Positions 27,649 to 56,336 of a stretch of DNA of 64,000 nucleotides are shown piece after piece. Source of the DNA: an uncultured Candidatus Saccharibacteria bacterium (GTDB taxonomy: Bacteria; Patescibacteriota; Minisyncoccia; Phycocordibacterales; UBA6899); assembly GCA_964469335.1 (NCBI GenBank), contig CAYXYK010000004.1, forward strand, positions 101,362 through 165,361, in the 5' to 3' direction. Under the pieces are notes generated by a model. That model was not told the origin of the DNA, did no database searches, and saw only the letters and a program-made list of their open reading frames with translations. Position numbers and translations under genes: made by a program. Positions within the stretch are counted from its first letter, which is position 1, and the number at the start of each line of letters is the position of its first letter.

Positions 27649-27650
27649 GA

Positions 27651-33367: not shown

Positions 33368-33645
33368 AACTTGAATAAGTATTTAAAATTTTCCAATCAA
33401 AATTTGAGGGAAAAATCAATAATTTTTTGCACATTTTTTCTGAAAAAACGCTTAGATGGTAAGAATTTTTTCAAAGTGCAGTGAGATGCAAAAAAATCTG
33501 TGGACAACTCGTGTTGCTTCCACGAAAGCCCTCAGTTGAGCCATGGTTTAAGAGCGATTTTAGCCCTATTTGAAGCCGTATTTTGGCTTTTTTCTGGTAA
33601 AATTAAGCCTAGCCAATCCTTTTTGGAGGAGGGGTGTGTATTTTC

Positions 33646-36600
33646 ATGTACCGACGCCTACGAACCTATGCACGAAGAGTGATTCACGCGTTTTCAACGC
33701 GCACGAGAGTCGCCTCAACCCTACTTTTTCTGGTACTCAGCGGATGGCTTGTATCGCAGTTCGTTCTTGCCCAGAAGGAATTGAATGTCTACATCTTTCC
33801 GTCCGCAGTGACGAGTGATGGATGGAACGACGATATTCAATCGCTCAGCCAGGATCTTTCTCCTGACGCAACGCTTGCGAATTTCACTACACTCAATTCA
33901 GCATCCGTTTCGTTCGGGTCTCTGGGCGCGGCTCCTGTCGCGACCTCATCGGTTCCCGGCGTGCCCACACCATCAGAAAGCGATCTGAGTACTTCGCTTG
34001 AGAACGTACTTCCTACTACCCCGTCTGTGGTGCCTACTGCACTCCCACTCAACGGCAACGATGAGCCGATCCTCGTTCCTGCAGTGGGAGAGGCGACCAC
34101 ATCTTCGGTGATCAGTCTTCCTAATCCCTTCGTTCCTGTCACGCCGCTACCTGAGAGCATCACTGCCTCATCTGCACAATCACTAAATCTATTGCCGGAT
34201 ATTCTGACCGATTTATTTGGCGTGAAGAAAGTGCTTGCACAAGAGCATGCTTCAGCGACGCCCAATGTGAGTGTGTCCGAGACTACGACCCCTGTTGTGA
34301 TGAATCAGGAAGGAAATGCCAGTGCCACTTTGCCAACTGTACCGGAACCTTACGTCCCCACCCCGATGTCGGCTGATCCCTATTCTGTCGCTTCATGTAC
34401 GACACTGGGACTCACATGCCACCTCATGACCTTCGTCGGGTTCGGGCTCGGAGATGCCTTCTCATCCCACCCGCTCACTTCAGCGACACTTGAGCTTTCT
34501 GTTGCGGGTCGTTCAGAGCTTTCCGCCCTGCAGCATGACCGATTGTTGGTTCGTGTATTCCATGCAGGTCGTTGGGAATTCCTTGGCGAAACTGAGATCA
34601 AGGGTGAACTTTCGAATGCAAAACGCGGAGGCTACCTTTCGTATGATCTTCCTGAGATCGCTGATTGGAAAGACCTTTCGGACATGAAGGTTGTTGTTGA
34701 GTATGCGCGCGAAGGTGAAGGGAATGCATCGCTCCTCATCGACGGTGTGTGGGTGAATGCGAAATACGGTACTGATAGCATCTCCGCCGATGCGACACCT
34801 GAAGAGATCGCGCTCTCGCAGTCGAACGTACGCAGTACTTTGTTCGCAAAGGACGCAGAAGATCGAAAAGTGAGACGTGACATCCTTGATACTCCGGAAG
34901 GAAGGGAGATCGCGCTTATGCATGCGGATGAGCACGACGATGCGGACATCATCATCAAGACCGACAAAGAGATATATCGCACCCTCGGGAATACCTCTGC
35001 ATACTTCAATGTCACCAACCAAAGCGACAAGGAACAGGTCGTTCGGCTGCAGTTCCATTTTCCTGAGGGTGGCGGCGGAGTTGCATCATTGTCCCGCCTT
35101 TCTCGCTCAGTCCCGTACAAAGTAAGTAATCTGAAATACGATTCCGTCGGTTACTTCTGTGCAAGCGGATGGCAGAGCGCCTCGTCGACCGACACGAAAG
35201 GATTTACTTGTGTTGATATGAATGAGACCCGATCTTGTGATGCGCTCAACGACGATAAGACGAACTGTATCGTCAGTGGTGCGCGAGTCGGGCTCACAGA
35301 AGACATCGAATATCGTGACGGATGGGTTCCTAGCGCTCTTCTACAGGGCTCGTTCCGTGATGATGCGGGCATCTTCGCCAAGGCGATCGACCTCATTCTC
35401 GGTAAGTTGCCTTCGGGAGCGATCCCTCCTTCTGAACAGCCGGTCTCGTACATCGAGAATTCGGTACTTCTTCTCCCGGGGCAGACTGCATACCTTCGCG
35501 CAGATCTTGCGCTCCCACTCAATGGACGCGGGGATTTCTATATCGAGGGAGCAACGGAGAGCGGTGCGTACGGTCTCGTTCATGCCGCATGGGATGGTTC
35601 ATGGAACTACCGTGTGCCCGTTGATATCGATAACGAGAAAGTCGAGACTGAAGACTCGTATGCCGTCCCGGTGTCGCTCGACTCGCTTCCGCTCGCATTC
35701 TGGGACAGGGTCAACGCGGACGGCTCGGATGTCCGTTTCGTTGACGAGACCGGGACGCAGGAACTCCCGTACTGGCTCTCTTCGTGGAAATACGAAGACC
35801 GAAAAGCATTCGCCTGGGTGCGAATCCCGAAGACGAGCAATTCGACCACTACGCGCATCTATGTGTACTACGGTGATCATAGTGCCGCTTCCCGCTCGTC
35901 GCTCACTGCTCCGTTCCGTACCGATAGGCTCACTTCGCGCGCGGTGATCGCAGGCTCGAGTCAGCATGATATGACACTACTCGCAATCGCGCTCGATGAA
36001 GATACGCACATCCAAGCGGGGGAGCATGAGCCAGTCACTCTCAAGAAGGGAGAGACTGCACTCTTTGGGTCGCTCGCACCGGGCGATGTAGTCCAAGCTG
36101 ATGGGCCGATATCTCTTTCGCTTGAGTCGAGCGGTTCAGGTGCGACGGTCGTTCCATACGGATATACTGGCGGCAATTTCGTTATTCCGGGAATCGGCGG
36201 TGAGCGCATCCTTTCGATGACTGCCGTCGAAGATGGTGAGGTGCACACGGAGCTCAAGCGAGGGAGTGCTACTTCGACAACTCTCGATCCGATTGCAGGG
36301 ACGATCGTTTCGGATACGGTGGATCTCGACAGTTCGATCCGTGTCGATGCGGCAAGTGATGTCATGGCACTCCTTTCTGCGGGGGATGGCACGCGCCTTA
36401 CCCCGCTTTATCCGTCGACCGATGAACCGCTTTATGGTTTCATGCTCGGAAAGACAGTGGTTGGATTCGGAACAGACGGATCGACGATGAAGGCGGTGTG
36501 TGCCGGAGGTGCGGTCAAATCCGCCGACGGACGTAGAGACGGCATGATGACCGTCCTCGATCATTGTCAAAGTTCCGTTCTTCCTTCGCTCGCCGACGCA

Positions 36601-39600
36601 GTCCGTATCAGTGAGTTGGCGAATCCCGCGTCGGTGTTGTCCCTCGGAGGAGAGATGTTTACGAGTTTCATTCCGAAAAGCGAGTTCGCTTCTTCATACG
36701 TGCTCGCCGAAGATGCCGGGACTCTCGCATTCATTTGTGCTCCCGAGGACGGTACCATCGATATCGGTGTTTTCGACGCAGGTGGCGCGTTCACTGCATC
36801 CACCACTTGTGAAGCGCGCGGTGCACGACCGGGCAAAGCACTGATCGAAAGCGCGAACGGTTTCCATGCCGGATCGATCGTCCGCTCTCTCGATGCGACT
36901 TCTACAGTGTTCATGGCAGCATATCAGGCGCTCGGACGTTCACTTGCTTCAGGTGAAGTTGCACCACTCACCACACTTTACGGAGCTCCCCAGTTACGAT
37001 CGCATTCACCGAACCACCCGAGAGTGACCACTGGCGAAGAGGAATTCGTGATTCCCGGCGAACACCGCAAACTCGATCTGGACGAGGAGGGGAAGGAACG
37101 TGTACATGTCGATAAGTTGCTCACTACTAAGCGTGAGTTCTCTGTACACGAACAGCCGGGATTCCAGTTCCAGTACACTCCGCAATCGAATTCGGTGGTC
37201 CAAGGAGTGAGAGGAGCGTTCGGTGTCGCGCAATTCTCGGTCACGAAGGTTTCCCTTCGTCATGCGCAGATCGGAGAACTGGAAGTCGAATATGACATCG
37301 GATATGGAGATGACAATATCTGGTCGCTTTCACTCAAGAATGTCGATGGTCATCTCCGCCCCGGGAAGTACACGCTCCATGTGGAGATCGAAGAAGGAGG
37401 AAGCACATATGTCGATGAGTATGATTTCTACTGGGGAGTACTTGCGATCAATTACAACAAATCGATGTTCACTCCCGGAGAGACAGCCAACATCTCGATC
37501 GGGGCACTCTCGGATAACGGCAATACGATCTGTGATGCGATACTGAAACTTTGGGTCACTCCTCCTGGAGGCACGGAGATCGAACTCCCTGTGTCGGCAT
37601 CCGGACTCTGCGACGGAAACAATGTTGTCGATGTGCCTGATTATTCATCCAGCTATTCCTTCTCCAGCGAGAATGCAACAGGTACGTACAAGGTGAAGTT
37701 AGTGCGCTTCGACAGAGAAGGAAATATCGCGAGCCAAGTGACAGACACCATCTCAGTCAAAGATTCAGTCCCTTTGAGTATCGAACGCGAAGGACCGACA
37801 CGCATCTATCCTGTAGCACATTATCCGATGAAGATCCGTGTTACCGCAAATGAGGATTTCAAGGGTAATATCATCGAACGCCTCCCCGGTGATTTCGTCG
37901 TGATTGATCGAGGAAGTGCGGAGCTCGCATGGGGAGACAGTGAGCATAGCTACATGACCGCAACATGGCCGGTCGACATGAAGAAGGGTGCTGTCGTGAC
38001 TTTTGCATACGAGTTTGATGCACCCGATCGCTCTCCGTATCTTTATGAACTCGGACCAGCAAGCACAGACGGAGACGTCGTATTTTCTGAAGCGCGCAAA
38101 TGGCAGATCGCTTCGGACGCAGCCGGGAAAATGATGATCTATTGGGACCGTACCTATACTCCCTCTGGGTGGACATGCATCTCATGTCTTCCATCCGATG
38201 TGTTCTACAATCGTTTTGCGATGGGGTCATCGACATATGGCGGGTTCGGTGGGACGGCGACCCACACACCGACAGCTTCCGCGGCAGTCGCGTCATTCGG
38301 AGGTACGGGTGTCGGACCAAACACAACCAATAACACCAACAACGCTCCTCTCGGACACACCCATACATTGACTCCACAGATTTCTGGAGTATCGAACCTT
38401 CCCACCTACAGACAGCTCGCAGTCCTGCAATCCAATAGCGCAGGCGACCCGGCTTCGATCCCCGGAGGAGCGATCGTCATGTTCGATATTGCATCATCGT
38501 CGCTACCGTCCGGTTGGTATCGCTACACTCCACTCGATGGCCGTTATGTGAGAGGACAATCAACGAGCACGACAGGTGTGACTGGAGGAGCGAATACCCA
38601 CTCGCATACTGCGACAGGCACACTTTCTGTAGCGATCGGGTCAGGACTTCGCGAACAGAACGGAGTGGTGAACGGTGCAACTGACGTGAATCACACCCAT
38701 ACCCTTTCCGCGACGAACACCGATGTGCTTTCGAATGAGCCGCCGTATGTTGAAGTGCTGTTTGCGCAGCAACCGGCGACGTCGACACCGGTCAATTATA
38801 TGCTCACTATGTGGGAAAATACCCCGCCGAGCGGATGGACGACACTCTCAGATCCGGGAGGTCCGCTCGAAGGGAAGTTTCTCAAGGCATCTACGACCTA
38901 CGGACTGACCGGTGGTTCGGCGACACATGCCCACGCGGATATATTCGGGGCGACCACATCGGTGCAAAGTCTTCTGAATAACTACACGGCAAACGTATCG
39001 AATGCACAGGCTCCTGCAGCACATACGCATACTGTTGACATCACTGGTTTTTCCACCGATGACCATCGACCTCCATATGTCGAGGTGATCTTCGCGAAAC
39101 GCCTCTCGGGGGTCACATTGTGGACACAGCAGCAATATCGCTGGTACTCAAACACGAACGCGATCACTCCGGTCGACCCATGGCCACCGACAGGAGGTGA
39201 TCTCGGAGAAGATTCGGCGATCGACGGCGGCTCACTTGCTGTTCGGGTCGGTGATGTGCTCAGACTTCGCATGTCGATACTCGCGATGAATTCGACCTCA
39301 ACTGTCGGAAGTCAGGCGTTCAAGCTTCAGTATGCCGACTCGCTTGATTGTCCGAGTGCGCTCAATTGGGACGATGTCGCTCCGATGTCTTCAACGACCG
39401 CAGAGTGGCGAGGGTACAATAATGGCGCTGTGGCCGATCGCGCGACGCTTCCGTCCACACTGCTCACGCTTTCGAATATCGCAGAAAGTTATACCGAAGA
39501 GAATAACTCTACCAGTACCTCCGTCGAGATCGGAGTCGGGCAGGCAGGTGAGTGGGATTGGGTGCTGCAGTCGAATGTTCCGCTTCCGGGTACCAATTAT

Positions 39601-42600
39601 TGTTTCCGCATGGTGAAGTCTGACGGAACTCCTCTCGACACAAATGACATCTATCCGGAAGCGCTCACCAACTTTGCTCCGAACGCAACAGTGCTCGCTT
39701 CACCGTTCGATAACGAGAAGATTTCTTCCACTACCCCATATTTAGTGTTCGCTTCGGCTGATCCTGAAGTGAATGACCTCGACTATGAAGTTCAGGTTTC
39801 CGCCACCAGTGATTTCGCTTCATCGATCGTTGACGTGGATTCGACCGTGAACCCTGAGCTTTTCGACAACGTACCGAATCCGACCAATAAAGCTCCGTTC
39901 AGTTCTGGAGATCAGATCCGTTATCGTGTAAGTCCTGCGCTGACGAACGGGAATACCTATTGGTGGAGGGTTCGCGCGAAGGATCTCTCTGGGTCGAATG
40001 CGTGGAGCTCCTGGTCGGCTGGAAGATCGTTCACTGTTGATACTGCGGTTACTATTTCCACATGGTTCCAGACCACTCGCGATCAGTTCGAAACGGACGG
40101 ACAGACGAACGTTGACGCTACGTCGACCGTAGCGAATGATGTCATGTTGATTGCTGGTCAGACAAGCGGCGTGCTCTATTCACCACAGATTGATCTCGAT
40201 CAGGCGACTCTTGGGACCGCCTGGGGCACACTATCGTGGAATGACTCTGAGGTCGTCGGGGACATCAAGTATCATGTGCAATACCTCGATGCGACTTCGA
40301 CGTGGGTAGATATTCCTGACTCAGGACTCTCAGGTAACTCTGCAGGATTCGATACCTCACCGATCTCACTGCTCTCAGTGGATCCCAATACCTATACTTC
40401 GATACGTCTTGCGGCGAACTTCACGAGTGTCGGAGGTTCCCCCCGTCTCTTCGATTGGACCCTTTCGTGGGGTTACAAAGTGACGACTCCGGTCATCAGC
40501 ACTCCGTTCGACAACGCCAAGGTCTCAACCACGACACCGTCATTCGACTTCGTTTCGACCGACCCGAACGGTGACCCGCTGACGTACGAGATCTCATGGT
40601 CTACAGACACCGCATTCTCGGCGTCGACCACTCGAACCTCAGATTTCAATCTCGGATTCCAGAATCTCACCACCCCGAGCGACACTGACCCGTATACGTC
40701 CGGCGAGAACATCCGTTTTACCGTGAGAGCGAGTGATGCGCTCACCAATGGGACAACCTATTACTACCGAGTCCGCGCGAAGGACCCGACTGGAGGGAAT
40801 GATTGGTCGTTCTGGTCTGACACACGCTCGCTTACCGTGGACACTTCGATCACCGTGGCAACCTGGTTCCAGAGCATGACCGGGCAGTTCAACACAGACA
40901 CACTCACCAGTATGTACAACTATGGCCTCGGTTCTTCTACTGTTTCGACATCAACCACCGAGGCGATGATCGCATACGGAGAAGGCACTGTGCAGACTCC
41001 CCGTTACCGCATCTGGGGAGGGACCGCATGGGGGAGCGAGTTTTCTGCCCTCTCCATCAATTCTAGTGTGCAGTGGGTCGTGCTCAAGGCATCCCCGGTC
41101 ATCGGTGAGTATATGATGGGAACGCTCGGGTCTGATCGTGATATCAATTTTCAGATATACAATAACGGTACTTGGGGGAACATGAATGAGATCACGACGA
41201 ATGCGCCGCCTGTGACTCGTCGGTCCCTCGACATCGCCTACGAGACGATTTCCGGACGCGCTCTTGCTGTCGCATGTGACGGTGATGCCGATCCATCATA
41301 CGCGATCTGGGACGGAACGAATTGGGGAAGTACGCAAACGATAGACCTTGCAAGCGCGAACAATTGTGAATGGATAAGACTTGCGTCGAATCCGGTCACC
41401 AACGAGATCATCCTCCTCGAGAGAAATACCGGTAATCTCTATCAGGCGGCGGTATGGAATGCCACATCTTCTACTTGGGGCACGACGACGAATATGGGAT
41501 CTATGTCCGAGATCGCACATGAGGGCATGGCACTTGAATATGAGGAAAGTGGAGACACTGCACTTGCGATCACGTCGAACACCACGAACTCCAGTTTTGT
41601 TTATAAGGCATACAAAGCAGGGGCATGGTCAGCATCGACGACAGTGACGCTCGGTGATGACTTCGAATGGGGAACGCTCGTTCGTGATCGTGGCACTGAC
41701 CGTATGGCACTCTGCTATGTCGATGAAGACGGTGATATCGGAATGAAACGCTGGGATGGGGGAGGATGGGTCGCGACCACTACCGTCGTCGAACTCGAGA
41801 CAGCGCCGACATTGACCGAGAATGAAGGACGCCCAGTCGACTGTGCATTCGAGAATACCACAGGAAGGGATACTTACATCATGACCTCCTACAGTGACCT
41901 CGTTGGAACCCGCTATCAGACATGGAACAACACCGCATGGGGCCCAGAAGCAAGCATTATGCCGGTGATCCGCAACTTCACTACTCAGTTGAGACGCACG
42001 GATGATAATAAGATCTTGGGTGTGTGGTTCGATTATCTCAATGGTGACTATTACACATCATCATGGAACGGCACGACATGGTCAGCGACCACCACCATCG
42101 AAACCAGTGCAAGTGTCACTGCTACGCCGTATGGTGAGCCGTTCATGATCGCACCCAAACTTCCGGCAACCAGAGGAACCATCGTCAGTTCGCCGATCGA
42201 CTACGATGATGGCGCATCACCCGCTTGGGATCAAGTGCTCTGGTCTAAGACCACCCCGGGACTAAGTACCTTCAAGGTGCAGGTCGAGTACTATGACAGC
42301 GCATCGTCATCATGGAAGCTCATCCCGGACACGGATCTCTCCGGTAACTCGAGCGGCACTTCGACCTCACCCATCAGTATCCGCAATCTTGATACAAGTA
42401 CATATAATCAGATCAGACTCGTTGGTAATGCGACCTGTGTGCTCGGTAATTGTCCTGTACTCAATGATTGGACAGTGAAATGGTCCGCGGGGCTCAACAT
42501 CTCCGGTACCGCGAAGCAGCAAGACCTCACGACGAATGTCACGAGCGGAACGGTCGCAGTCGCAGTCAACGGTGTGCTTCAGGCAGGGAAGACCGGGACC

Positions 42601-45600: not shown

Positions 45601-48600
45601 GACATGAAAGCATACGACAAGACCGGTGACACGGACATCCCGTTCATCGCGGCAACTTCGTCCGTGCCATACACACTCACTACTGATCCGGATACGCAAC
45701 TCTGGGTTTGGAATTCCAAGACCTTCATCCCGGGAGGGAATATCACGCTGAACTCAGGAGGTTCGGGGCAGACCTACGACGGATCACTCATCTTGAGTGC
45801 GAACTCAGTGTTCACCGCACAGGGGACAGAAACTCACTCGATCGGAGGCGGTTTCAGCGCGAATGCAGGTGCCGTGTTCACTGCCGCGAATTCGACCTTC
45901 AATTTCACTGCAACGACAACGGGGAAGAGCATCATTGGTGTGGCACCGCTCACGTTCTGGAGGATGAGTTTCAGCGGTTCGGGTGGTGGGTGGGTGATCA
46001 ATCAGGCGCTCACGGTCGGTGAGAATTTCCTCCCGAATGCAGGAACAGTTTCCGGAACAAGCAACGTTACCGTGAGTGGAACGACAGTTTCAGGAGCCGG
46101 TTCGATCGCGATGACCGGCGGGACTTTCACTCTTTCGAACGGTGGCACATTCGGAGGGAATAGTGATTGGTCGTTCAACAATCTCACCTTTGGCAACGGA
46201 ACTTTGGCAACAACAACGAAGACCGGGTCGTCTACTGTCACCGTCGCAAGCGTCCTTACTGATGCCGCCAATCAGACCTTCCAGGCCGGAACATCGACCA
46301 CCTGGGTGCTCACTGGTGGAGGAACCCCGCTTGTTCTCTCAGGTACGTTTTCCGTTCAGAATGCAACGTTCCGCTATGCAGGCACGAGTGCGACGAACGT
46401 GACTCCCGCCACATATGCGCAGCTCGATTTCGGAGCGAGCGGAGTCTCTTCCCCGGTCTATACCTTGCTATCGGGAACTTTCAATGTCGGTGGGGCATGG
46501 AATGTCGGAGTGGTTGCGACGAATACCGTCACGGTGAATGCGAACACCAACGATCCGACACTTACGCTATCAGGCAACGTGAACGTTGTCGCTTCATCTA
46601 CCTTCGTACTATCCAATACTGGCTCACTCACTGCACGAAGGAATTGGACGAATCTCGGAACGACGACTGCGTCCGGAGGAACCGTGACTTTCGATGCGAC
46701 GACGACAGGCTTCACCATCTCAGCGGGCGCATCTCCGTTCGCAAATGTCTCGTTCAATAATTCTAATGGTGGTTGGACTGTTGTAGGGAACGCTACCGCG
46801 ACGGGGAACTTCACACTCTCCGCACTCGCATCGTTCACACTCTCGCCGAATGCGACACTTGAAGTCGACGGTGTCTTTACGAACGGTATCGGAGGGGGCG
46901 CGACCACATGGACCAATTCGACGCTATACCTCAATGCGAATGCGGCAGAAACGATCAACACCAAAACGACGGGCGCCGATACATATGGAACATTGCTCAC
47001 TGGCGGCACAACGCAAGTGCGCGTGTGGAATTCATCAGCAGCAACTACAACGACCAACAATTCGAGCAGCGTCTATTCGATGAATCATGCGAATGTCTCA
47101 GGGGCGCTCAATATCTGGGGCACATACAATCACTCAAGCGGCACCGACTACTGGGATTACGCGACTGACTTCGATGGTGTGTCGATTGCGTCAACTTCAC
47201 GTGTCGTGAACGTACGTGTCGCTTCGAGTTCTTCTCTTAATTTCTCAGGCGGACAACTTGAAGTACTTGGTGCATCCGGTGCGACGACGACGATTGACGT
47301 ACTGACAACCGGCGGATATTCATGGAACATCACCGGCGGAGTGGTCAACATGCAGTATTACAAGATCCGAGGTATCGACCAGAACGGACTTTCGATCTCG
47401 GGCTCACCAACGGTCTCAGGGCTCTCCAATGGAGATTTCCTGCTTGCGGTGAACGGCGCTACCATGATGACAATCGCGGGCGGAACTATCGACGCGAACC
47501 CCCTAAAGACCTTCTTTGGAATGAGTTTTGCTACTTCAAGCGGCATCACGTCAGGGTACAACATTACTGCGACCGGTGTGTCCGGCTCAGTGTGGACCAT
47601 AAGCGGCCTATCGGGGAACTATGCCGGTGAAGCGCGAGACAACGATCCGGGTGGTGACCCAGGATACATTCGTTGGGACGATTCCGCCGCACAGATCTCG
47701 GTCTCAGGAAATGTCTACAGTGACGAAGGTCTAACACCAATAGGGGGACCCGTGTGTGATGGAGTGACACAGAATGTGCGCCTCAAGGTTCAAGGTGCGG
47801 GTTCGTATACTTCGGCATGTAATGCAGGAACCGGTGCATTCTCGATCTCGAACATCATCTATAATCCGAAGGATACACTGACACTCTATCTTGCATCGAC
47901 GACCGGTGTGCGAGCGGTCAATATTGCCTACGATCCCGCGACCAACATCACGAGCATGAATCTTTACCAGAACCGTATCATCCTCAGACATGAGCAGGGC
48001 AGTGCGGTCGGCATCGCTCAGATGGCGGCATATGACAACAACAAAGACAGTGCGATCCCGTTCATTGCGACGACGACCGTTGCGACCTCGACGACCGTAT
48101 TCGCGGGCACAGGACTCATTGTCTGGAATTCGAAGGTTTTCGCACCTGGCGGAAATGTCACGCTCCATGCGAATGCATCAGGAAATAGCTGGGATGGATC
48201 GGTGCACCTGTTGGCGACATCGACATGGAGTTCATCAGGGACAGAGTCGTATACAATCGGAGGATCGTTCGCAGCCGACACTTCCGCGTCAGTGGCACCC
48301 GCGAACTCGACATTTAATTTCACTGCAACAACAACAGGAAAGTCTGTTTCCGCTTCGAATACTCTCACTTTCTACAACCTCACTTTCAGTGGCGCCGGTG
48401 GGGCATGGAGTATCCCCGGAGTCTCGACAACGTCGAATGATCTCACTATCTCCGGAGGCACCCTCACTCTTCCCACGGGGACACTCTTCGTCGGAGGAAG
48501 TTGGAACAATTCAGGCGGGGCATTCGTGGCAAGCGGCGGCACCGTAGAGTTCATTGCGACGGCGAGTGGGAAGAACATTCGCACAGGTACTTCAGCGTTT

Positions 48601-51600
48601 TGGAATACCACGTTCTCGGGTACGGGTGGCGCATGGACATATCTCGACACGAATTCTACTACTTCAGGTACCACGACAGTGACGGCAGGGACACTGACGC
48701 TTCCTTCGGGCGTATATGCGGAAGGGAAGAGCTTTGACGTACGCTCCGGGTCGGTAAGTGCGAACGGTGGTACACTCAAGATGATATCGACGTCGACCGG
48801 ACAGACGGTCAGGCTTTCCGGTTCATCACTCGCGAACCTCTTGGTCGCCGCGACAGGCACATTCCAATTCCTCGACAGTTATGCGACGACGACAGGAGAT
48901 GTTTCGCTCACGTTCGGAACGACGACGTTCCCTTACGCGGCACTCACGATTGGCGGTTCGTTCTCCAATTCGGCGGTATTCAGTGCGGGAACCTCGACAC
49001 TGGTGATGAACGGCAGCGTTGCGGGGAAGACGATCTCACTCGGGAATTCATCGCCGTACAATATGACGATAAACGGTGCTTCGGGAGGATTCACCGTTTC
49101 GGGAAACGCGACAACGAGCAATAATTTCAGTCTCATTGCAGCGAGTACATATACACAGAGCTCAGGTACTACGCTTGCGGTCGGTGGCGTCTTCACGAAT
49201 TCGGTCGGTGGCGCTCCGACCACATGGTCAGGAACGACGCTCTCGCTTTACGGCACATCGTCGAATTACAGTATCAACAGCAAGTCGGCGGGAGGTGATG
49301 CATATAACATCATCCGCCTCGCGGCGAATACCAATATCCGCATGTGGAACTCGTCCGTTTCGACCACTCAGCTAGACCCCGCCTCGAGCATCTATTCACA
49401 GAACAATGCGGCGTCCGCCGGCTCACTCTATATTTACGGTAACTATACTCGTTCTTCGGGGACCGACTACTGGAGCTATGCGACTGATTTTGATGGAACC
49501 GCACTCGGCGGCTCATCACGGCAGGCGAATGTTCGCTTCGATGCGAATGCTACTGCGACATTCCAGAACGGTGCGACACTTTCGATGCAAGGCAGCGCGA
49601 CCGCCTCGACGTCAGTTGATCGTATCTCGAGCGGTAGTTATGGCATCACACTCGATTCATCGTGGTGGACCGCACAGTACTATCAGTTCCGCAACATGAA
49701 TTCGACCGGGCTCAATCTCACAGGCACAACAACGATCTCGATGAACAACGGTGATTTCTCGCTCGATGTGAATGGGGGAAGATCGATCACCGTATCATCC
49801 ACCACCATAGATCAGAATGCCTCACAGCAGTTCTTCTACGTGAAGTTCGCGACTTCGAGCGGCATCACCTCAGGGTACAACGTACTTCGAACGGGAACCA
49901 CGACGAACTCGTTCACCTTCAATTCCGAGTATGGAAACTTTGCAGGGGAAGCATTCGACAATGATGGTGCTGATGGTTGTGGTTCTATCAGGTGGTCAGA
50001 TAGTGCATGCCTTATCTCTGATCAGCGCGGATATCGATGGAGAAATGATGATGGCGCAGAAGGTGCACCTTCGTCCGAGTGGTACAACCAGAGCTGGACG
50101 AAGCGCGAGCGTATCCGCATCGTCAATAATGCAACCACGTCTTACACCAATGAGCAGGTAAAACTTGATATTCCTTACGATTCGGATATGAAGAGTAATT
50201 TTGATGATATCCGTTTCACTGACTCATCGGGTACCACCAGTATCCCGTTTTGGACCGAAAGTTACCTCACTTCTGCGACCGCTACCGTATGGGTGAAAGT
50301 GCCGTCACTCCCGGGGTCCGGAACTGCTGATATCTTCATGTACTTCGGTAATTCCGGTGCGTCTTATGCTGGCTCGGGCACCTCGACATTCACGTTCTTC
50401 GATGATTTCGAAGACGGTAATCTGAGTGAATACACTGGCAACACTACGCTGTTCTCCAATGATGCGACATTCAATTATGAACGCACATACGGTCTTGCTG
50501 CATCGGCAGGAAATACCGGAGCTCAGAATACCAGCGGTATCGGTCAAGCATCGGCAGGAGTCGGGCGTGATACAACCTTCCGTTTCAATCAGTATATCGA
50601 CATGACAAGTGGCGGCTCGGACGAGCCCTGCTTCTTGTTCGCGATCCAGCCCCCTATCACGGGACATCAGAACTACGGTGTCTGCCTCTCTCCGTTCGGT
50701 GCTGATCATCTCGTGGTCGCGAAGAACGTCTCATGGAACGGACGTGCGGCAAGTGACGGCTCGACACTGCTCGTATCGAAAGCGGTCACATATACGACGG
50801 GTTGGTATCAGGTTTCCGTTGATTGGATCGCAACGAACAATCAGATCAATGTGAATGTGTACGACAATACTGGATCGCTATTTGCGACCGCGACGACGAC
50901 CGATTCTACTTGGACCTCAGGTGGTGTCGGCTTCACATTCTGGGGAATGCACGGAGGATGGGATATTCCGTTCGCACGTACATATAACTACCTCACACCG
51001 TCGTATGCACTCTTCACCAAGCAAGCAGATTCCGGTGCAACATGGGCAGCTGCAGAGAACACATATCTTCCGAATTATGTGCAGAATCAGAATGTCCGCC
51101 TGCGCTTCTCGGTACGCAATTCATCACTCGCACCTCTGTCGGAGAACTTCCGCTTACAATATGCTGCAAAGCTCGCATCTCCGAACTGTGAGTCAGTACC
51201 GACGGGGAACTATAGTGATGTACCGACCACCTCGGGAGGATGCGGAAGCGCCGCGGCATGTATGACCTCATCAAGCCAGTTCACCAAATCATCTTCGACG
51301 CAGCTCTTGACCTTCCCGAACGGCTACACGTTCACCCAGGCACAGATCCTCGAGGATCCGAACAATCAGACCGACAACATCTCTCTTTTGGCGAATGCGT
51401 TCACTGAAGTCGAGTACAACATCCAGATGACGAACAATTCGTCACTCGACAGATATTGTTTCCGAACCACGAATGCCGGCACACCGCTCGACAACTATAC
51501 CCGCGTTGCTGAGATTCAAGTGCTGCATCCTCCGACACTCTCGAATTTTAGCTTCAATCAGAACTCGGATATTGCGCTCACCGAAGGAACGACCACCTCA

Positions 51601-52308
51601 GTGATGGCAACTGCCACGGTCACAGACCTCAATGGGTATTCAGACATAGTCGCAGCATCGTCGACGTATTATCGCTCTTCGGTCGCTGGTGGCCGCAATT
51701 GTAGTGCTGATAGTAATAACTGCTATCAGATGGCGACATCATCGTGTGCACTTTCGAATTGTGCGGGTAACTCTTGCACGATCTCATGTGCTGCGCCGAT
51801 GTACTACTTTGCTGATCCGACCGATGTGGGTAGTACTTTCGCAGCAGATGTATGGAGTGCGATCGTCGATATCTGGGACACTGCCAATGCGCATTCGAAC
51901 AGTAGCTCGAATCAAGAGCTCTACACGCTCAAGGCACTCACTTCTTCGAGTACCATTAATTACGGTTCGATCACGGTTGGTGCTGATACTGGTGCGTCTG
52001 ATGCGACAACTACGGTCAGTAATACCGGGAATACGGTACTCAATTTGCTCCTTTCGGGATCGAATATGACTGCTGGATCGAGCACTATCTCGGTCGACAA
52101 ACAGAAGTATGCGACCTCCACCTTTGTCTATAGTTCTTGTACGCTCTGTAATTCGCTTGCGACATCGTCGAACCCGTTCAATATCGGCATCGTGAAACCT
52201 ACCACCACCACGACTCCGTTCTCAGGCAATCTCTATTGGGGTCTCGCAGTTCCGAACGGCACTGCGGCGACGACACACTCAGGCGTGAATACCTTCCTCG
52301 CCAATTAA
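33646..52308 (+). CDS. giant (~6220 aa) secreted multi-domain surface protein/adhesin
   Basis: The ATG at 33646 has GGAGGAGGGG 11 nt upstream. The protein has a signal peptide. Domains seen: tail-collar-like HxH (~38.16-39.1 kb), two Fn3-like modules (39.67-40.05 and 40.48-40.85 kb), a W-rich propeller-like region, three ~2.4-kb tandem beta-helix-type repeat units (42.5-49.9 kb), a Cys-rich domain (~51.5-51.9 kb) and a WxL-like C-terminus (YWGLAVPNG). The reading frame is unbroken. Confidence 0.85.
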   Translation: MYRRLRTYARRVIHAFSTRTRVASTLLFLVLSGWLVSQFVLAQKELNVYIFPSAVTSDGWNDDIQSLSQDLSPDATLANFTTLNSASVSFGSLGAAPVATSSVPGVPTPSESDLSTSLENVLPTTPSVVPTALPLNGNDEPILVPAVGEATTSSVISLPNPFVPVTPLPESITASSAQSLNLLPDILTDLFGVKKVLAQEHASATPNVSVSETTTPVVMNQEGNASATLPTVPEPYVPTPMSADPYSVASCTTLGLTCHLMTFVGFGLGDAFSSHPLTSATLELSVAGRSELSALQHDRLLVRVFHAGRWEFLGETEIKGELSNAKRGGYLSYDLPEIADWKDLSDMKVVVEYAREGEGNASLLIDGVWVNAKYGTDSISADATPEEIALSQSNVRSTLFAKDAEDRKVRRDILDTPEGREIALMHADEHDDADIIIKTDKEIYRTLGNTSAYFNVTNQSDKEQVVRLQFHFPEGGGGVASLSRLSRSVPYKVSNLKYDSVGYFCASGWQSASSTDTKGFTCVDMNETRSCDALNDDKTNCIVSGARVGLTEDIEYRDGWVPSALLQGSFRDDAGIFAKAIDLILGKLPSGAIPPSEQPVSYIENSVLLLPGQTAYLRADLALPLNGRGDFYIEGATESGAYGLVHAAWDGSWNYRVPVDIDNEKVETEDSYAVPVSLDSLPLAFWDRVNADGSDVRFVDETGTQELPYWLSSWKYEDRKAFAWVRIPKTSNSTTTRIYVYYGDHSAASRSSLTAPFRTDRLTSRAVIAGSSQHDMTLLAIALDEDTHIQAGEHEPVTLKKGETALFGSLAPGDVVQADGPISLSLESSGSGATVVPYGYTGGNFVIPGIGGERILSMTAVEDGEVHTELKRGSATSTTLDPIAGTIVSDTVDLDSSIRVDAASDVMALLSAGDGTRLTPLYPSTDEPLYGFMLGKTVVGFGTDGSTMKAVCAGGAVKSADGRRDGMMTVLDHCQSSVLPSLADAVRISELANPASVLSLGGEMFTSFIPKSEFASSYVLAEDAGTLAFICAPEDGTIDIGVFDAGGAFTASTTCEARGARPGKALIESANGFHAGSIVRSLDATSTVFMAAYQALGRSLASGEVAPLTTLYGAPQLRSHSPNHPRVTTGEEEFVIPGEHRKLDLDEEGKERVHVDKLLTTKREFSVHEQPGFQFQYTPQSNSVVQGVRGAFGVAQFSVTKVSLRHAQIGELEVEYDIGYGDDNIWSLSLKNVDGHLRPGKYTLHVEIEEGGSTYVDEYDFYWGVLAINYNKSMFTPGETANISIGALSDNGNTICDAILKLWVTPPGGTEIELPVSASGLCDGNNVVDVPDYSSSYSFSSENATGTYKVKLVRFDREGNIASQVTDTISVKDSVPLSIEREGPTRIYPVAHYPMKIRVTANEDFKGNIIERLPGDFVVIDRGSAELAWGDSEHSYMTATWPVDMKKGAVVTFAYEFDAPDRSPYLYELGPASTDGDVVFSEARKWQIASDAAGKMMIYWDRTYTPSGWTCISCLPSDVFYNRFAMGSSTYGGFGGTATHTPTASAAVASFGGTGVGPNTTNNTNNAPLGHTHTLTPQISGVSNLPTYRQLAVLQSNSAGDPASIPGGAIVMFDIASSSLPSGWYRYTPLDGRYVRGQSTSTTGVTGGANTHSHTATGTLSVAIGSGLREQNGVVNGATDVNHTHTLSATNTDVLSNEPPYVEVLFAQQPATSTPVNYMLTMWENTPPSGWTTLSDPGGPLEGKFLKASTTYGLTGGSATHAHADIFGATTSVQSLLNNYTANVSNAQAPAAHTHTVDITGFSTDDHRPPYVEVIFAKRLSGVTLWTQQQYRWYSNTNAITPVDPWPPTGGDLGEDSAIDGGSLAVRVGDVLRLRMSILAMNSTSTVGSQAFKLQYADSLDCPSALNWDDVAPMSSTTAEWRGYNNGAVADRATLPSTLLTLSNIAESYTEENNSTSTSVEIGVGQAGEWDWVLQSNVPLPGTNYCFRMVKSDGTPLDTNDIYPEALTNFAPNATVLASPFDNEKISSTTPYLVFASADPEVNDLDYEVQVSATSDFASSIVDVDSTVNPELFDNVPNPTNKAPFSSGDQIRYRVSPALTNGNTYWWRVRAKDLSGSNAWSSWSAGRSFTVDTAVTISTWFQTTRDQFETDGQTNVDATSTVANDVMLIAGQTSGVLYSPQIDLDQATLGTAWGTLSWNDSEVVGDIKYHVQYLDATSTWVDIPDSGLSGNSAGFDTSPISLLSVDPNTYTSIRLAANFTSVGGSPRLFDWTLSWGYKVTTPVISTPFDNAKVSTTTPSFDFVSTDPNGDPLTYEISWSTDTAFSASTTRTSDFNLGFQNLTTPSDTDPYTSGENIRFTVRASDALTNGTTYYYRVRAKDPTGGNDWSFWSDTRSLTVDTSITVATWFQSMTGQFNTDTLTSMYNYGLGSSTVSTSTTEAMIAYGEGTVQTPRYRIWGGTAWGSEFSALSINSSVQWVVLKASPVIGEYMMGTLGSDRDINFQIYNNGTWGNMNEITTNAPPVTRRSLDIAYETISGRALAVACDGDADPSYAIWDGTNWGSTQTIDLASANNCEWIRLASNPVTNEIILLERNTGNLYQAAVWNATSSTWGTTTNMGSMSEIAHEGMALEYEESGDTALAITSNTTNSSFVYKAYKAGAWSASTTVTLGDDFEWGTLVRDRGTDRMALCYVDEDGDIGMKRWDGGGWVATTTVVELETAPTLTENEGRPVDCAFENTTGRDTYIMTSYSDLVGTRYQTWNNTAWGPEASIMPVIRNFTTQLRRTDDNKILGVWFDYLNGDYYTSSWNGTTWSATTTIETSASVTATPYGEPFMIAPKLPATRGTIVSSPIDYDDGASPAWDQVLWSKTTPGLSTFKVQVEYYDSASSSWKLIPDTDLSGNSSGTSTSPISIRNLDTSTYNQIRLVGNATCVLGNCPVLNDWTVKWSAGLNISGTAKQQDLTTNVTSGTVAVAVNGVLQAGKTGTISAGTWTIPNVTFFPGSTLTVFVSGAATSARAVAVAVYDGPGDFGGMSLNEHWLTVGSASGTLATTTLTNLSKYDNSVAGGTDVFYDVTAGGDYNHCAIAVPAGCYDSSLYLLAENIFSPSTSTAKTLTTYNMRIAGSMYLDANTLKVGASWRNLGGFTPNTGTVMFNATTSTRTIDNTGAATSTFGNVTFGEVATLATWTFSTPFVATGTVAMNFGTTSPGAQSMTLLGDLTIGASGIFAKGSATTTFSGTQSKTWTDNTAAKQDLGNVAISGTAKTVTLASSVKATNINIVAGNTLNAGGANTFSVLGFWDNAGTLTPQTGTVAFIATSSSKTINQASSNFYNATFNGVGGAWRWLNTNATTTNDLTIATGTLTLPGGTLEVGGSFANTGGTFVNNSGITKLTSTAGGKTIQTGTSTFNDLVFSGSGGAWSFVDVNATTSGTLTILAGTPTFPSGVLEVGNNFINSGGTFVANGGTLKLTSSLNSRTITFGGSSPANLTVQNAGVFTVTDTNATTTGNVNFVAGTTTLPAANFVIGGSFTNTGRFTAGTNLVTFNAASGAKTINPGASSFASVLFSGAGTFTVSANATTTNDLTIFSVGGFTQSSGTTLAVGGQFTNQVGGATTTWSGSTLALNSGTAYSINTKTTGGDLYGTLRLAANTQIRSWNSSSTVYVLGTSASLYSQNHNSVSGEVDIFGTYTRTSGSDYWSYATDFDGTVLGSPRQANVRFDSGATASFAAGTTLEILGSATASTSIDRKSSGNYGVTLSSSTINAQYYQFRNMNASGLTLNSSTTVTSLANGDFTIDLNGASGMTVASSTIDTNPGLQLFNVRFATSTGISAGFNVAETGAATSFWRFKNHYGNYAGEAYDSDPGPSSGNPGYVRWDDSNFVISISGTVYSDAGSTPMGAPTCDGVTNTVRVKVSGQGNYAAPCANGSGVYTVSGVTFTGDNVMTVYLDTNGGAQAVAVTKSASADLTGIDLYQHRVILRHEDTFPMSIADMKAYDKTGDTDIPFIAATSSVPYTLTTDPDTQLWVWNSKTFIPGGNITLNSGGSGQTYDGSLILSANSVFTAQGTETHSIGGGFSANAGAVFTAANSTFNFTATTTGKSIIGVAPLTFWRMSFSGSGGGWVINQALTVGENFLPNAGTVSGTSNVTVSGTTVSGAGSIAMTGGTFTLSNGGTFGGNSDWSFNNLTFGNGTLATTTKTGSSTVTVASVLTDAANQTFQAGTSTTWVLTGGGTPLVLSGTFSVQNATFRYAGTSATNVTPATYAQLDFGASGVSSPVYTLLSGTFNVGGAWNVGVVATNTVTVNANTNDPTLTLSGNVNVVASSTFVLSNTGSLTARRNWTNLGTTTASGGTVTFDATTTGFTISAGASPFANVSFNNSNGGWTVVGNATATGNFTLSALASFTLSPNATLEVDGVFTNGIGGGATTWTNSTLYLNANAAETINTKTTGADTYGTLLTGGTTQVRVWNSSAATTTTNNSSSVYSMNHANVSGALNIWGTYNHSSGTDYWDYATDFDGVSIASTSRVVNVRVASSSSLNFSGGQLEVLGASGATTTIDVLTTGGYSWNITGGVVNMQYYKIRGIDQNGLSISGSPTVSGLSNGDFLLAVNGATMMTIAGGTIDANPLKTFFGMSFATSSGITSGYNITATGVSGSVWTISGLSGNYAGEARDNDPGGDPGYIRWDDSAAQISVSGNVYSDEGLTPIGGPVCDGVTQNVRLKVQGAGSYTSACNAGTGAFSISNIIYNPKDTLTLYLASTTGVRAVNIAYDPATNITSMNLYQNRIILRHEQGSAVGIAQMAAYDNNKDSAIPFIATTTVATSTTVFAGTGLIVWNSKVFAPGGNVTLHANASGNSWDGSVHLLATSTWSSSGTESYTIGGSFAADTSASVAPANSTFNFTATTTGKSVSASNTLTFYNLTFSGAGGAWSIPGVSTTSNDLTISGGTLTLPTGTLFVGGSWNNSGGAFVASGGTVEFIATASGKNIRTGTSAFWNTTFSGTGGAWTYLDTNSTTSGTTTVTAGTLTLPSGVYAEGKSFDVRSGSVSANGGTLKMISTSTGQTVRLSGSSLANLLVAATGTFQFLDSYATTTGDVSLTFGTTTFPYAALTIGGSFSNSAVFSAGTSTLVMNGSVAGKTISLGNSSPYNMTINGASGGFTVSGNATTSNNFSLIAASTYTQSSGTTLAVGGVFTNSVGGAPTTWSGTTLSLYGTSSNYSINSKSAGGDAYNIIRLAANTNIRMWNSSVSTTQLDPASSIYSQNNAASAGSLYIYGNYTRSSGTDYWSYATDFDGTALGGSSRQANVRFDANATATFQNGATLSMQGSATASTSVDRISSGSYGITLDSSWWTAQYYQFRNMNSTGLNLTGTTTISMNNGDFSLDVNGGRSITVSSTTIDQNASQQFFYVKFATSSGITSGYNVLRTGTTTNSFTFNSEYGNFAGEAFDNDGADGCGSIRWSDSACLISDQRGYRWRNDDGAEGAPSSEWYNQSWTKRERIRIVNNATTSYTNEQVKLDIPYDSDMKSNFDDIRFTDSSGTTSIPFWTESYLTSATATVWVKVPSLPGSGTADIFMYFGNSGASYAGSGTSTFTFFDDFEDGNLSEYTGNTTLFSNDATFNYERTYGLAASAGNTGAQNTSGIGQASAGVGRDTTFRFNQYIDMTSGGSDEPCFLFAIQPPITGHQNYGVCLSPFGADHLVVAKNVSWNGRAASDGSTLLVSKAVTYTTGWYQVSVDWIATNNQINVNVYDNTGSLFATATTTDSTWTSGGVGFTFWGMHGGWDIPFARTYNYLTPSYALFTKQADSGATWAAAENTYLPNYVQNQNVRLRFSVRNSSLAPLSENFRLQYAAKLASPNCESVPTGNYSDVPTTSGGCGSAAACMTSSSQFTKSSSTQLLTFPNGYTFTQAQILEDPNNQTDNISLLANAFTEVEYNIQMTNNSSLDRYCFRTTNAGTPLDNYTRVAEIQVLHPPTLSNFSFNQNSDIALTEGTTTSVMATATVTDLNGYSDIVAASSTYYRSSVAGGRNCSADSNNCYQMATSSCALSNCAGNSCTISCAAPMYYFADPTDVGSTFAADVWSAIVDIWDTANAHSNSSSNQELYTLKALTSSSTINYGSITVGADTGASDATTTVSNTGNTVLNLLLSGSNMTAGSSTISVDKQKYATSTFVYSSCTLCNSLATSSNPFNIGIVKPTTTTTPFSGNLYWGLAVPNGTAATTHSGVNTFLAN
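42490..49935 (+). repeat. three tandem ~2.3-2.7-kb intragenic repeat units
   Basis: Unit boundaries are marked by NYAGEAYDSDPG.PGYVRWDD (45190), NYAGEARDNDPGGDPGYIRWDD (47621) and NFAGEAFDNDGADGCGSIRWSD (49935). The units contain internal GGAW../TLTLP.G.LEVGGSF.N.GG.FV beta-helix-like sub-repeats. Confidence 0.7.
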
Positions 52309-53889: not shown

Positions 53890-54001
53890 ATCAGTTTTGG
53901 CGACCTGCTCGTGCTTCCTCCAGCAAGTCGAGGCACCGTAGATGACTACGGCTTCTCGACATTGCCTCAGTCCAGCACGTCGCATCTCATCCAAAACTGC
54001 T
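53890..54001 (+). repeat. long nested-hairpin element immediately 3' of stop codon
   Basis: The outer inverted repeat is ATCAGTTTTGG / CCAAAACTGCT. The middle stem is GTCGAG/CTCGAC. The centre is CCGTAGatgaCTACGG. Confidence 0.4.
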
Positions 54002-54118
54002 ATATTTCTACATATTGACATTTAATATATATTATGAATAATAATTTACGCATTCATTAATCAGTAGACATGTAGCTTGAAATTCCTCAAGTTCATCACT
54101 CTGCTGATAGCAGAGGAG

Positions 54119-54433
54119 ATGGAAATGGGCGAACTGAAAGCGTTGTGCGAGTTTTGCGGCCTCGTTGCCGCGGACCATCACAAGAACGGGTTGTGTACCA
54201 CAGCCGCCGGCATCAAGGCCAGAAAGGACTTTGACGATGGATTAGAAACAGGACAGTACTTTCCGTACTACCCGCTCGCGCGGCGTGAGGTAGTGCTTAC
54301 GAATATTGAAAAGGTCTCTCCAGCGTTCGTGCGGGGTTACCGAAAGGGCGAACTGCTGGCGCGTCTAGATGACCTTGCCTCCCAGTATGAGGTCGATGAT
54401 CTGAGTGACCTCGAAGACGGTTCTTCTGTATAA
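54119..54433 (+). CDS. hypothetical Cys-containing protein
   Basis: The ORF runs from MEMGELKALCEFCGL with GAGGAG adjacent to the start. An AT-rich promoter region lies upstream. I recognise no family. Confidence 0.3.
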   Translation: MEMGELKALCEFCGLVAADHHKNGLCTTAAGIKARKDFDDGLETGQYFPYYPLARREVVLTNIEKVSPAFVRGYRKGELLARLDDLASQYEVDDLSDLEDGSSV

Positions 54434-54512
54434 AAAAAGTAGAATGATGGAACAGGGGACACTGATCCTGACCTTGGATCAAGGGGCTTCGGCCCCTTTT
54501 TGCATGTGGAAA

Positions 54513-54893
54513 TCAATCAAGTATCCCGAGTTTTTGTTTGACGTGGGAGACGACCTCGTCCATCATCCAACCTTCCTTTTTGAAATAGTCGAGACCTTCG
54601 GTGTTGATCCATGACATCACCCGCTCTTCTTCCGCTCCGGTAAGCATGATGACCGGGATGGATTTCCCCCACTCATCTTTACGGAGATTTTGGTACATCG
54701 CGAGGCCATCCATGACGGGCATCATCACGTCGAGCATGATCAGGTCAGGGTGGATGTTCTTTGCAGTCTCAAGTCCAAGCATTCCGTTCTCCGCTTCATA
54801 GACCTCAAAGCCCGCCCCCTCGAGTGCGTCCTGTACCACCGCACGTAAGAGTCGTGAATCTTCGACGATCAGTACTTTCTTTTTGTCGCTCAT
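54513..54893 (-). CDS. single-domain response regulator (CheY-like receiver)
   Basis: The sequence MSDKKKVLIVEDSRLLR ... LIMLDVMMPVMDG ... PVIMLTG is typical of a REC domain with the phospho-acceptor Asp in LIMLD. Only the 3' 381 nt of the long minus-strand ORF is credible. Confidence 0.75.
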   Translation of the reverse strand: MSDKKKVLIVEDSRLLRAVVQDALEGAGFEVYEAENGMLGLETAKNIHPDLIMLDVMMPVMDGLAMYQNLRKDEWGKSIPVIMLTGAEEERVMSWINTEGLDYFKKEGWMMDEVVSHVKQKLGILD

Positions 54894-54961
54894 GACATCA
54901 TAGTAGCAGGGGATAATGCACTCATCCACTCGAAACAGTGGAGGAATCCTATTTTGCTCTA

Positions 54962-54967: not shown

Positions 54968-54977
54968 AGAGCAAGCT

Positions 54978-56306: not shown

Positions 56307-56336
56307 TGTTTTTGCACCTTAGGGGAAAGTGCTACC

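Follow-up and report, generated by a model that had tools for sequence, protein, structure and literature searches.

Candidate Phyla Radiation bacteria (CPR, or Patescibacteria) depend on other cells and typically have very small genomes. To our knowledge, how they recognize and hold their hosts is unknown for most of them, that is, for all but a few Saccharibacteria. The closest described relatives of the protein considered here come from a census of 2.1 million NCBI Patescibacteria proteins, in which 149 exceed 4,000 amino acids (aa) and 82 of these 149 carry FhaB and/or DUF2341 domains; a role in adhesion or host interaction has been proposed for the latter group (PMC11809585). Another system, the Pam pilus of CPR bacteria described in a 2026 preprint, comprises pilins with a truncated C-terminal immunoglobulin (Ig) domain and PapD/FimC-like chaperones with a C-terminal transmembrane (TM) helix, and its homologs are reported to occur mostly in Saccharimonadia and Microgenomatia (10.64898/2026.03.03.709456). 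Here we analyze a 64-kb stretch of contig CAYXYK010000004.1 (the window, to which all nucleotide positions below refer), in which a single open reading frame (ORF) of 18.7 kb encodes a protein of 6,220 aa, hereafter the giant. The gene is intact, and it probably specifies a very large extracytoplasmic fiber or adhesin that would attach the cell to a host cell or a surface polymer.

The giant ORF occupies positions 33646–52308 on the plus strand (6,220 codons plus a stop). It has two candidate starts, a GTG at 33634 and an ATG at 33646, and a GGAGG ribosome-binding site lies at about 33627–33631, ~15 nucleotides (nt) before the ATG, from which we number residues. A sequence-only reading of the window had reported one uninterrupted frame of 6224 aa. 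That length holds when counted from the GTG; the product counted from the ATG has 6,220 aa and is an exact match to the protein called on a 168-kb NCBI contig. The frame itself was confirmed on several grounds. The other five frames of the same 18.7 kb contain 159–330 stop codons each, and the giant frame contains one, so its openness is beyond chance. A full-length counterpart of 6,222 aa, whose protein sequence is 95.8% identical to the giant with three small gaps, is encoded on a 24.6-kb Logan contig from an independent assembly, and the two versions belong to one 90%-identity protein cluster. The gene is also tiled, at 97–100% nt identity, by contigs assembled from eight or more further samples, and the indels mapped within it, of 3 nt at 33925 and of 6 nt at 49990, preserve the frame. 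Comparison with the most divergent variant (L016) over 1,665 codons yielded 146 synonymous and 18 non-synonymous differences, which indicates strong purifying selection. Because the internal repeats share only 25–57% protein identity in self-comparison, their collapse during assembly is unlikely.

Two contigs carry disruptions of the frame: an ENA contig at 2.3× coverage (L024, ERZ4216102) has ~42 nt extra and a frame break near 45643, and a JGI contig (L026) has a stop codon close to its start. Both look like low-coverage or edge artefacts. The independent full-length copy, the in-frame indels and the divergence of the repeats speak against frameshifts or collapsed repeats as the source of the frame. 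The giant gene is real, conserved and under purifying selection. A promoter and terminator scan of the spacer upstream of it was uninformative, and no tRNA or Rfam feature was found in the 64-kb window.

By sequence, the giant is a member of the catalogued, uncharacterized family of giant DUF2341 proteins. A HMMER scan with giant residues 3100–3900 retrieved 642 relatives, 214 of them at E ≤ 1e-30, and at least 30 cluster representatives among the matches listed are 5,300–7,700 aa long. More than 30 family members are collinear with the giant over 50–97% of its length, and one protein of 6,229 aa (P0132) aligns in a single high-scoring segment pair over giant residues 1–6219 at 52% identity. 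Residues 2840–6219 are collinear in nearly all members. The N-terminal third differs among them: the HxH module described below is present or absent, the copy number of module M3 varies and the region of the first DUF2341 domain is variable. The pairwise comparison with P0132 follows the same division, with 25–37% identity over the first 1,139 aa and 50–67% over the rest, the HxH module being the most similar segment at 67%. The N-terminal part is variable and fast-evolving, and the C-terminal ~3,400 aa are more uniformly conserved.

The family owes its database name to Pfam DUF2341 (PF10102), two copies of which score 63.8 and 81.8 bits in the giant against a cut-off of 23.4; both were absent from the domain list of the sequence-only reading. 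One family member, MEX0931679.1, is named 'DUF2341 domain-containing protein' (Candidatus Paceibacterota bacterium) at NCBI. Named homologs of three pieces of the giant are nearly all from CPR/Patescibacteria, including Parcubacteria GW2011_GWA2_47_7, Paceibacterota, Saccharibacteria, Woesebacteria, Giovannonibacteria, Kaiserbacteria, Doudnabacteria and Falkowbacteria. The sole named homolog from elsewhere is a Geobacter protein, whose common part with the giant is the HxH module only. Among contigs representing one genome per species, the closest loci are those of a Ca. Lloydbacteria metagenome-assembled genome (68% aa identity) and of Parcubacteria GW2011_GWA2_47_7 (67%). Lloydbacteria are members of the Parcubacteria group and, judged by these relatives, the bearer of the gene is a CPR bacterium of that group, nearest to Ca. 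Lloydbacteria.

The N-terminal part includes a triple HxH module (residues 1478–1828; 38077–39129), made of three ~110-aa repeats with the pattern 'I.MW....P.GW...G.tGG..tHtHt ... HTHT...PPY.evi.ak'. An alignment of 27 sequences shows no or almost no variation in the second HxH of the three repeats (H94/H96, H206/H208 and H316/H318 in module numbering); the giant itself has five intact HxH motifs and one degenerate motif. An AlphaFold2 model built from this alignment reached a predicted local distance difference test score (pLDDT) of 81 and a predicted template-modeling score of 0.78. Searched with Foldseek against BFVD, a collection of predicted viral proteins, it matched Pas29 and Pas28 of the Actinoplanes phage phiAsp2 (E = 7e-16 and 1e-15, respectively; template-modeling score 0.53) and, more weakly, a protein labeled 'phage tail collar domain' (3e-4) as well as the tail fiber of an Aeromonas phage (1e-3). 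The kinship is also detectable by sequence, with tblastn aligning the module to Pas28 at 35% identity over 163 aa (E = 3e-6) and HxH repeat 2 matching PHROG 5795, 'tail protein' (E = 1e-5). The pas28 and pas29 genes lie directly after the tail protein gene in phiAsp2, and Pas29 is annotated as a possible receptor-recognizing protein with HXHY motifs similar to the T-even tail fiber.

These matches relate the HxH module to receptor-recognition tail proteins of an actinophage. Of the two tail-collar-like HxH domains proposed earlier, the phage tail-fiber kinship stands, and the architecture is instead one module of three repeats; Pfam Collar (PF07484) has no match in the giant at E ≤ 5. In T4 gp37 and gp12, HxH histidines from three chains coordinate metal ions on a threefold axis. 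Because three HxH repeats in one chain resemble this three-chain arrangement, we suggest a single-chain pseudo-trimer with a metal site, in which the three invariant HxH pairs probably coordinate metal on a pseudo-threefold axis. A triple HxH module in one chain, with relatives among actinophage receptor proteins, was one of the less expected features of this locus.

The remainder of the N-terminal part, all of it on the plus strand, begins with a signal peptide or signal anchor at residues 1–42 (33646–33771). Its n-region has seven Arg and is followed by a hydrophobic stretch at residues 22–40, the only hydrophobic segment in the 6,220-aa protein, and then by VLA/Q, which makes the signal peptide named in the sequence-only reading plausible. 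Orthologs also have a hydrophobic start, followed by a conserved 'hIHvFPt.V' motif. A Pro/Ser/Thr-rich low-complexity spacer, read from the sequence (residues ~43–250; 33772–34395), is the least conserved segment between strains (83% versus 94–100% elsewhere). The fast-evolving beta region after it (residues ~251–1139; 34396–37062) had only three homologs in a word-indexed search and is 35–37% identical to its counterpart in P0132; it contains DUF2341 copy 1 (residues 692–754; 35719–35907; Pfam E = 2.1e-17). Module M1 (residues 1140–1477; 37063–38076), with a weak MG2-like match, precedes the HxH module here and in many CPR proteins. On the far side of the HxH module, sequence comparison delimits the ~180-aa module M3 (residues 1826–2010; 39121–39675), which is tandemly repeated many times elsewhere among CPR proteins (at least 11 copies in P0006) and is also present in a 1760-aa ORF of the window (15607–20889), where it is 37% identical to the copy in the giant.

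Two Fn3/Ig-like modules (39763–40830), recognized by Pfam and self-comparison, agree with the two Fn3-like modules reported before: one lies at residues 2040–2130 (Ig_Rha78A_N, E = 1.7e-10) and the other, a weak fn3/Pur_ac_phosph_N match, at residues 2304–2392. Each is followed, within residues 2011–2453, by a domain of ~140 aa that we call X. The propeller-like repeats of the sequence-only reading correspond to eight W-rich units spaced ~50 aa apart (residues 2454–2822; 41005–42111); these have no family match in Pfam and no sequence match in the PDB, and their beta-propeller fold stays putative. The two halves of the second X domain align to residues 2131–2195 and 2175–2275 of the first. Because these self-alignments place the halves around the W-rich block, the W-rich units appear to be a nested insertion within the second X domain (residues 2398–2946; ~40837–42483).

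The C-terminal part has a different build. Residues ~2950–5460 consist of three ~800-aa super-repeats, 40–57% identical to each other, every one of which combines 77-aa units with another repeat region and with an 'ISGTVY' domain of the Ig-like type. Super-repeat 1 (residues ~2950–3900; 42493–45345) has six 77-aa units at residues 3148–3607; super-repeat 2 (residues 3901–4700; 45346–47745) is 40–50% identical to it; and super-repeat 3 (residues 4701–5460; 47746–50025) is 50–57% identical to it, with four 77-aa units at residues 4889–5188. Eleven 77-aa units are clear, and their period is significant (z of 7–8). The beta-helix-type repeats that had been proposed for ~2500 aa of the protein were not confirmed: the super-repeats display the 77-aa period only, with no coil period of 22–27 aa, and Pfam gives no Beta_helix, PATR or pectate-lyase match in them. 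The 77-aa units match both an Ig-like family and the hemagglutinin repeat Fil_haemagg weakly. Sequence searches of the PDB with the HxH, W-repeat and super-repeat regions and with a profile of the 77-aa unit returned chance-level matches only, and most of the giant has no family assignment in Pfam, NCBIfam or PHROGs.

Beyond the super-repeats, DUF2341 copy 2 (residues 5518–5594; 50197–50427; Pfam E = 4.4e-23) lies within a ~320-aa region (residues 5461–5785) that is paralogous to residues 638–757. It is followed by an M3-like beta domain (residues 5786–5960; 51001–51525), with weak similarity to M3 via homologs, and by the conserved C-terminal module (residues 5960–6220; 51523–52305), which comprises a Cys-rich Ig-like domain and a second beta-sandwich. 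The Cys-rich domain noted earlier is there, with six Cys at residues 6019–6048. The C-terminal ~260 aa are common to ~80 homologs, most of which have the motif YWG[IL]x[IV]PxGT......G.NTF.A no more than 10 residues from the protein end. All 44 Cys of the giant occur in close pairs or clusters, and Thr (13%), Ser (11%) and Gly (10%) together make up 34% of its residues; on both counts the composition fits an extracytoplasmic, beta-rich protein.

We propose that the giant would be exported by the Sec system via its basic and hydrophobic N-terminus, and that nearly all of it would lie outside the cell as a beta-rich, Thr/Ser/Gly-rich and disulfide-paired chain, assembled from modules shuffled across the surface proteins of CPR bacteria. 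The N-terminal ~2,900 aa would supply candidate ligand-binding modules, namely the DUF2341 region, the triple HxH module, the Fn3/Ig spacers and the putative W-rich propeller. The C-terminal ~3,400 aa, with the super-repeats, the second DUF2341 region and the two-domain C-terminal module, would provide a rigid stalk and contact with the cell's own machinery. After cleavage of the signal peptide, the C-terminal end would be proximal and the N-terminal modules distal, an orientation we infer by analogy with phage fibers, which are fixed to the particle by their conserved end and contact the receptor with their variable one. Adhesion itself, like metal binding, surface location, export and the position of the distal end, is a prediction from sequence. 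The 18.7 kb kept intact under purifying selection and the conservation across many Paceibacterota make the giant a strong candidate for a host-interaction organelle. The sequence-only reading had described a mosaic giant of a host-attached bacterium that likely mediates attachment; the intact gene, the mosaic and the CPR origin all hold, and attachment is plausible and coincides with the proposal in the literature (PMC11809585).

Several points weigh against an adhesin. Expression, surface location and binding of the giant are predicted from the gene. An uncleaved N-terminal anchor would put the candidate binding modules beside the membrane, an unusual arrangement for an adhesin, and the giant has no LPXTG, dockerin or WxL match to account for anchoring. 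Because the super-repeats, about 40% of the protein, have no family match in Pfam, NCBIfam or PDB sequences, there is also room for an enzymatic or other role.

The giant's neighbors are surface proteins with cohesin, dockerin or Fn3 domains. Downstream on the plus strand follow a syntenic protein of 496 aa that consists of Fn3 repeats after a hydrophobic N-terminal segment (52399–53889); a syntenic MacB-type ATP-binding cassette (ABC) transporter (54978–58658), with its ATPase at 54978–56306, YdjM at 56337–56897 and a MacB_PCD/FtsX permease at 57450–58658; a 635-aa paralog (58820–60727; 629 aa as called elsewhere) with a giant-type C-terminal module; and a 347-aa protein (60879–61922), chaperone-like by its architecture of a signal peptide and a C-terminal TM helix. 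The 635-aa product, listed as the 58855 protein in the sequence-only reading and called there a paralog of the giant's C-terminus, is indeed one: its residues 369–626 are 32% identical to giant residues 5991–6218 (E = 3e-13). The order giant, Fn3 protein, ABC ATPase, (YdjM), permease, 635-aa paralog and 347-aa protein is kept in four related genomes (L027–L030) at 43–85% aa identity. A Falkowbacteria genome (L040) has part of this order, which starts there with the Fn3 protein and continues into dockerin and cohesin genes. A cluster that joins a MacB-type transporter to a pair formed by a C-terminal-module paralog and a chaperone-like protein was, like the propeller-like insertion in a repeated domain, among the less expected results.

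A membrane-anchored cohesin protein lies directly upstream of the giant (31747–33261; TM helix near aa 399–417), and two dockerin-bearing Ig-repeat proteins, 34% identical to each other, lie nearby at 29191–30903 and 61922–63124; a dockerin/cohesin pair adjoins the same gene cluster in the Falkowbacteria genome too. Among the surface-protein genes, a tandem pair of paralogs with 50% identity occupies 26707–29114; their products have hydrophobic N-terminal segments as well as FGE-sulfatase (formylglycine-generating-enzyme-like) domains. Related contigs have a gene for a 124–126-aa response regulator on the minus strand between the Fn3 and ABC ATPase genes (54000–55000 in the window). A DRR685535 contig (L022) has a 1-nt insertion at the position matching 54665, and the DRR685535/6 contigs have small unrelated ORFs in place of the response regulator, which may therefore be inactivated in that population.

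The 347-aa protein bears on the alternative that survives best. In this reading a surface fiber of the Pam-pilus or Csc/WxL type, assembled with the help of chaperones, would have the giant as its tip or adhesin subunit. The signal peptide of the giant would be cleaved, its C-terminal Ig module would be held or polymerized by the membrane-anchored 60879-type protein together with the 635-aa paralog, and its distal N-terminal modules would be host-specific. The position of the C-terminal module, no more than ~10 residues from the C-terminus in most of the ~80 homologs, agrees with such a role, and homologs of the 347-aa protein directly follow proteins with a giant-type C-terminal module in L030, L039 (Doudnabacteria), L040 (Falkowbacteria) and L041. 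The giant, however, is directly followed by the Fn3 protein gene and not by a chaperone-like gene, the chaperone fold of the 347-aa protein is putative, and the analysis pointed to no donor strand. For the second C-terminal sub-domain the model reaches a pLDDT of only 60–75, as an incomplete Ig fold might give. In L039 and L041 the homologs of the 347-aa protein have C-terminal SH3_3/SH3_4 domains of the cell-wall-binding type, which hints that this family tethers its partners to the wall.

Within the window, the 347-aa protein is one of four paralogs (ORFs 20898, 22147, 25467 and 60879), each of which combines a signal peptide with a TM helix at the C-terminus. ORFs 20898 and 22147 follow the 1760-aa ORF, 25467 follows ORF 24009 and 60879 follows the 635-aa ORF. 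Sub-threshold WxLIP_PGBD/DUF916 matches were found for 25467 (E = 3e-5), 20898 (0.016) and 22147 (0.013); ORF 60879, a distant paralog of these three, had no WxLIP match in the same profile scan. The C-termini of the 1760-aa and 24009 proteins are paralogous to each other (31% identity, E = 2e-11), and that of the 1760-aa protein matches the Pam pilin model NF058581 (CPR_Pam_pilin_C) weakly, at E = 1.4e-5. This again recalls the truncated C-terminal Ig domain of Pam pilins and the C-terminal TM helix of their chaperones (10.64898/2026.03.03.709456), but the score of the match, 25 bits, is below the cut-off of 55. In the giant itself, the C-terminal module has no match to NF058581 at E ≤ 1, its comparison with the 24009 family by profile–profile alignment (hhalign) gave E = 0.035 at a probability of 1.5%, and sequence comparison detected no paralogy between it and the C-termini of the 1760-aa and 24009 proteins. 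Because the profile comparison is non-significant, the tie of the giant's C-terminus to a chaperone-assisted system is one of gene neighborhood only. We regard a chaperone-assisted fiber as an unlikely alternative.

A fuller version of it would make the C-terminal two-Ig module of the giant and its ~600-aa paralogs an unrecognized acceptor or anchor domain that works with the membrane-anchored, 60879-family chaperone-like protein and perhaps with the MacB-type ABC transporter. The giant would then be the tip adhesin of a second, Parcubacteria-type chaperone-assisted fiber, whose host range would be set by a phage-derived, trimer-mimicking HxH module in one chain. We offer this as a speculative picture, with the odds clearly against it.

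A WxL assignment fared less well. The sequence-only reading had given the giant a WxL-like C-terminus and had called the 1760-aa and 24009 proteins its WxL-like paralogs. Pfam WxL (PF13731) has no match at E ≤ 10 in the C-termini of the giant or of the 635-aa, 1760-aa and 24009 proteins, and we rejected the WxL reading on these profile tests. The only W-x-L-like tripeptide is within YWGL near the giant's end; the 1760-aa and 24009 proteins have Y/F for W, and the C-terminal domain common to them differs from that of the giant.

The genes at 15607–26525 form two clusters that resemble CPR Pam-pilus or Firmicute Csc/WxL clusters: the 1760-aa protein followed by the signal peptide and TM proteins 20898 and 22147, and the 385-aa protein 24009 followed by 25467. 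If this likeness is true, these clusters would extend Pam-like systems into the Parcubacteria group. Just before them, at 13805–15610, a 601-aa ORF encodes beta-propeller repeats (TIGR04275, E = 3e-16); its overlap of 4 nt with the 1760-aa ORF (15607–15610) suggests translational coupling.

The giant might instead be a secreted or surface-bound enzyme or weapon, its repeats forming a beta-solenoid glycanase or lyase that degrades the host cell wall. Giant genes have been discussed for predatory Omnitrophota and linked to cell-wall degradation by such bacteria (10.1101/2023.11.21.568195). A homolog with the HxH module (P0049) carries Pfam Beta_helix/NosD, and one 77-aa unit matches Fil_haemagg weakly. 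Nevertheless, Pfam, NCBIfam and PDB sequences yield no catalytic family in the 6,220 aa, the repeats lack coil-length periodicity and the detectable domains are all of binding or spacer types, so we give a degradative enzyme little credence.

We assign a similarly small chance to a structural role in the envelope, for example as an S-layer or sheath protein, in place of one as a host adhesin. Conservation in many Paceibacterota, the large, Thr/Ser-rich and all-beta nature of the protein and the uniform conservation of its C-terminal two-thirds would suit such a component. Yet module shuffling, a fast-evolving N-terminus and a module like phage receptor-binding proteins fit ligand recognition better than a lattice, and S-layer proteins are usually much smaller and highly abundant. 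Finally, the frame is almost certainly neither an artefact of assembly nor a pseudogene in decay: short-read contigs do frequently break within the gene, and two disruptions are on record (near 45643 in the low-coverage ENA contig and near the edge of the JGI contig), but both readings are rejected on the full-length independent copy of 6,222 aa, the full-length ortholog at 52% identity, the strong synonymous excess and internal repeats too divergent for collapse.

A very large fiber or adhesin is our preferred reading, and the analysis supplies a real frame, a corrected domain map, a link to phage receptor proteins and a conserved cluster that gives candidate partners. It opens no new category, as earlier work has counted the giant DUF2341 proteins of Patescibacteria and suggested an adhesin role for them (PMC11809585).

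Set beside known systems, the giant differs from the giant repetitive adhesins, such as the RTX (repeats-in-toxin) adhesins MpIBP and LapA, SiiE and Bap. The RTX, type I secretion and LPXTG features of those proteins are absent from it, with no Pfam match to HemolysinCabind or related RTX families; its repeats are divergent (25–57%), not near-identical, and its export signal is N-terminal. The likeness to the WxL/Csc complexes of Firmicutes, with their DUF916/DUF3324 partners, is one of layout, in that a secreted protein with a C-terminal beta-domain adjoins a DUF916-like membrane protein; unlike those complexes, the giant and its neighbors have no Pfam WxL match and one W-x-L-like tripeptide, and they belong to a different phylum. 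The window resembles the Pam pilus (PamA/B pilins and PamC/D chaperones) in that proteins with conserved C-terminal beta-domains are followed by proteins that combine a signal peptide with a C-terminal TM helix, in the weak NF058581 match of the 1760-aa protein and in the genomic linkage of the giant-type module to one chaperone-like family. The giant departs from it in a C-terminal module without a Pam pilin model match, in a ~15-fold difference in size and in a bearer from the Parcubacteria group. With the phage HxH tail fiber proteins (phiAsp2 Pas28/Pas29, the T4 gp37 tip and gp12) it shares conserved HxH pairs. Its nearest counterparts are the giant DUF2341 proteins of Paceibacterota. Although the module content of their N-terminal third varies from member to member, they are collinear with the giant over 70–100% of its length at 38–52% identity, and they have in common with it the DUF2341 domains, the super-repeats, the C-terminal module with its motif and the phylum-level group.

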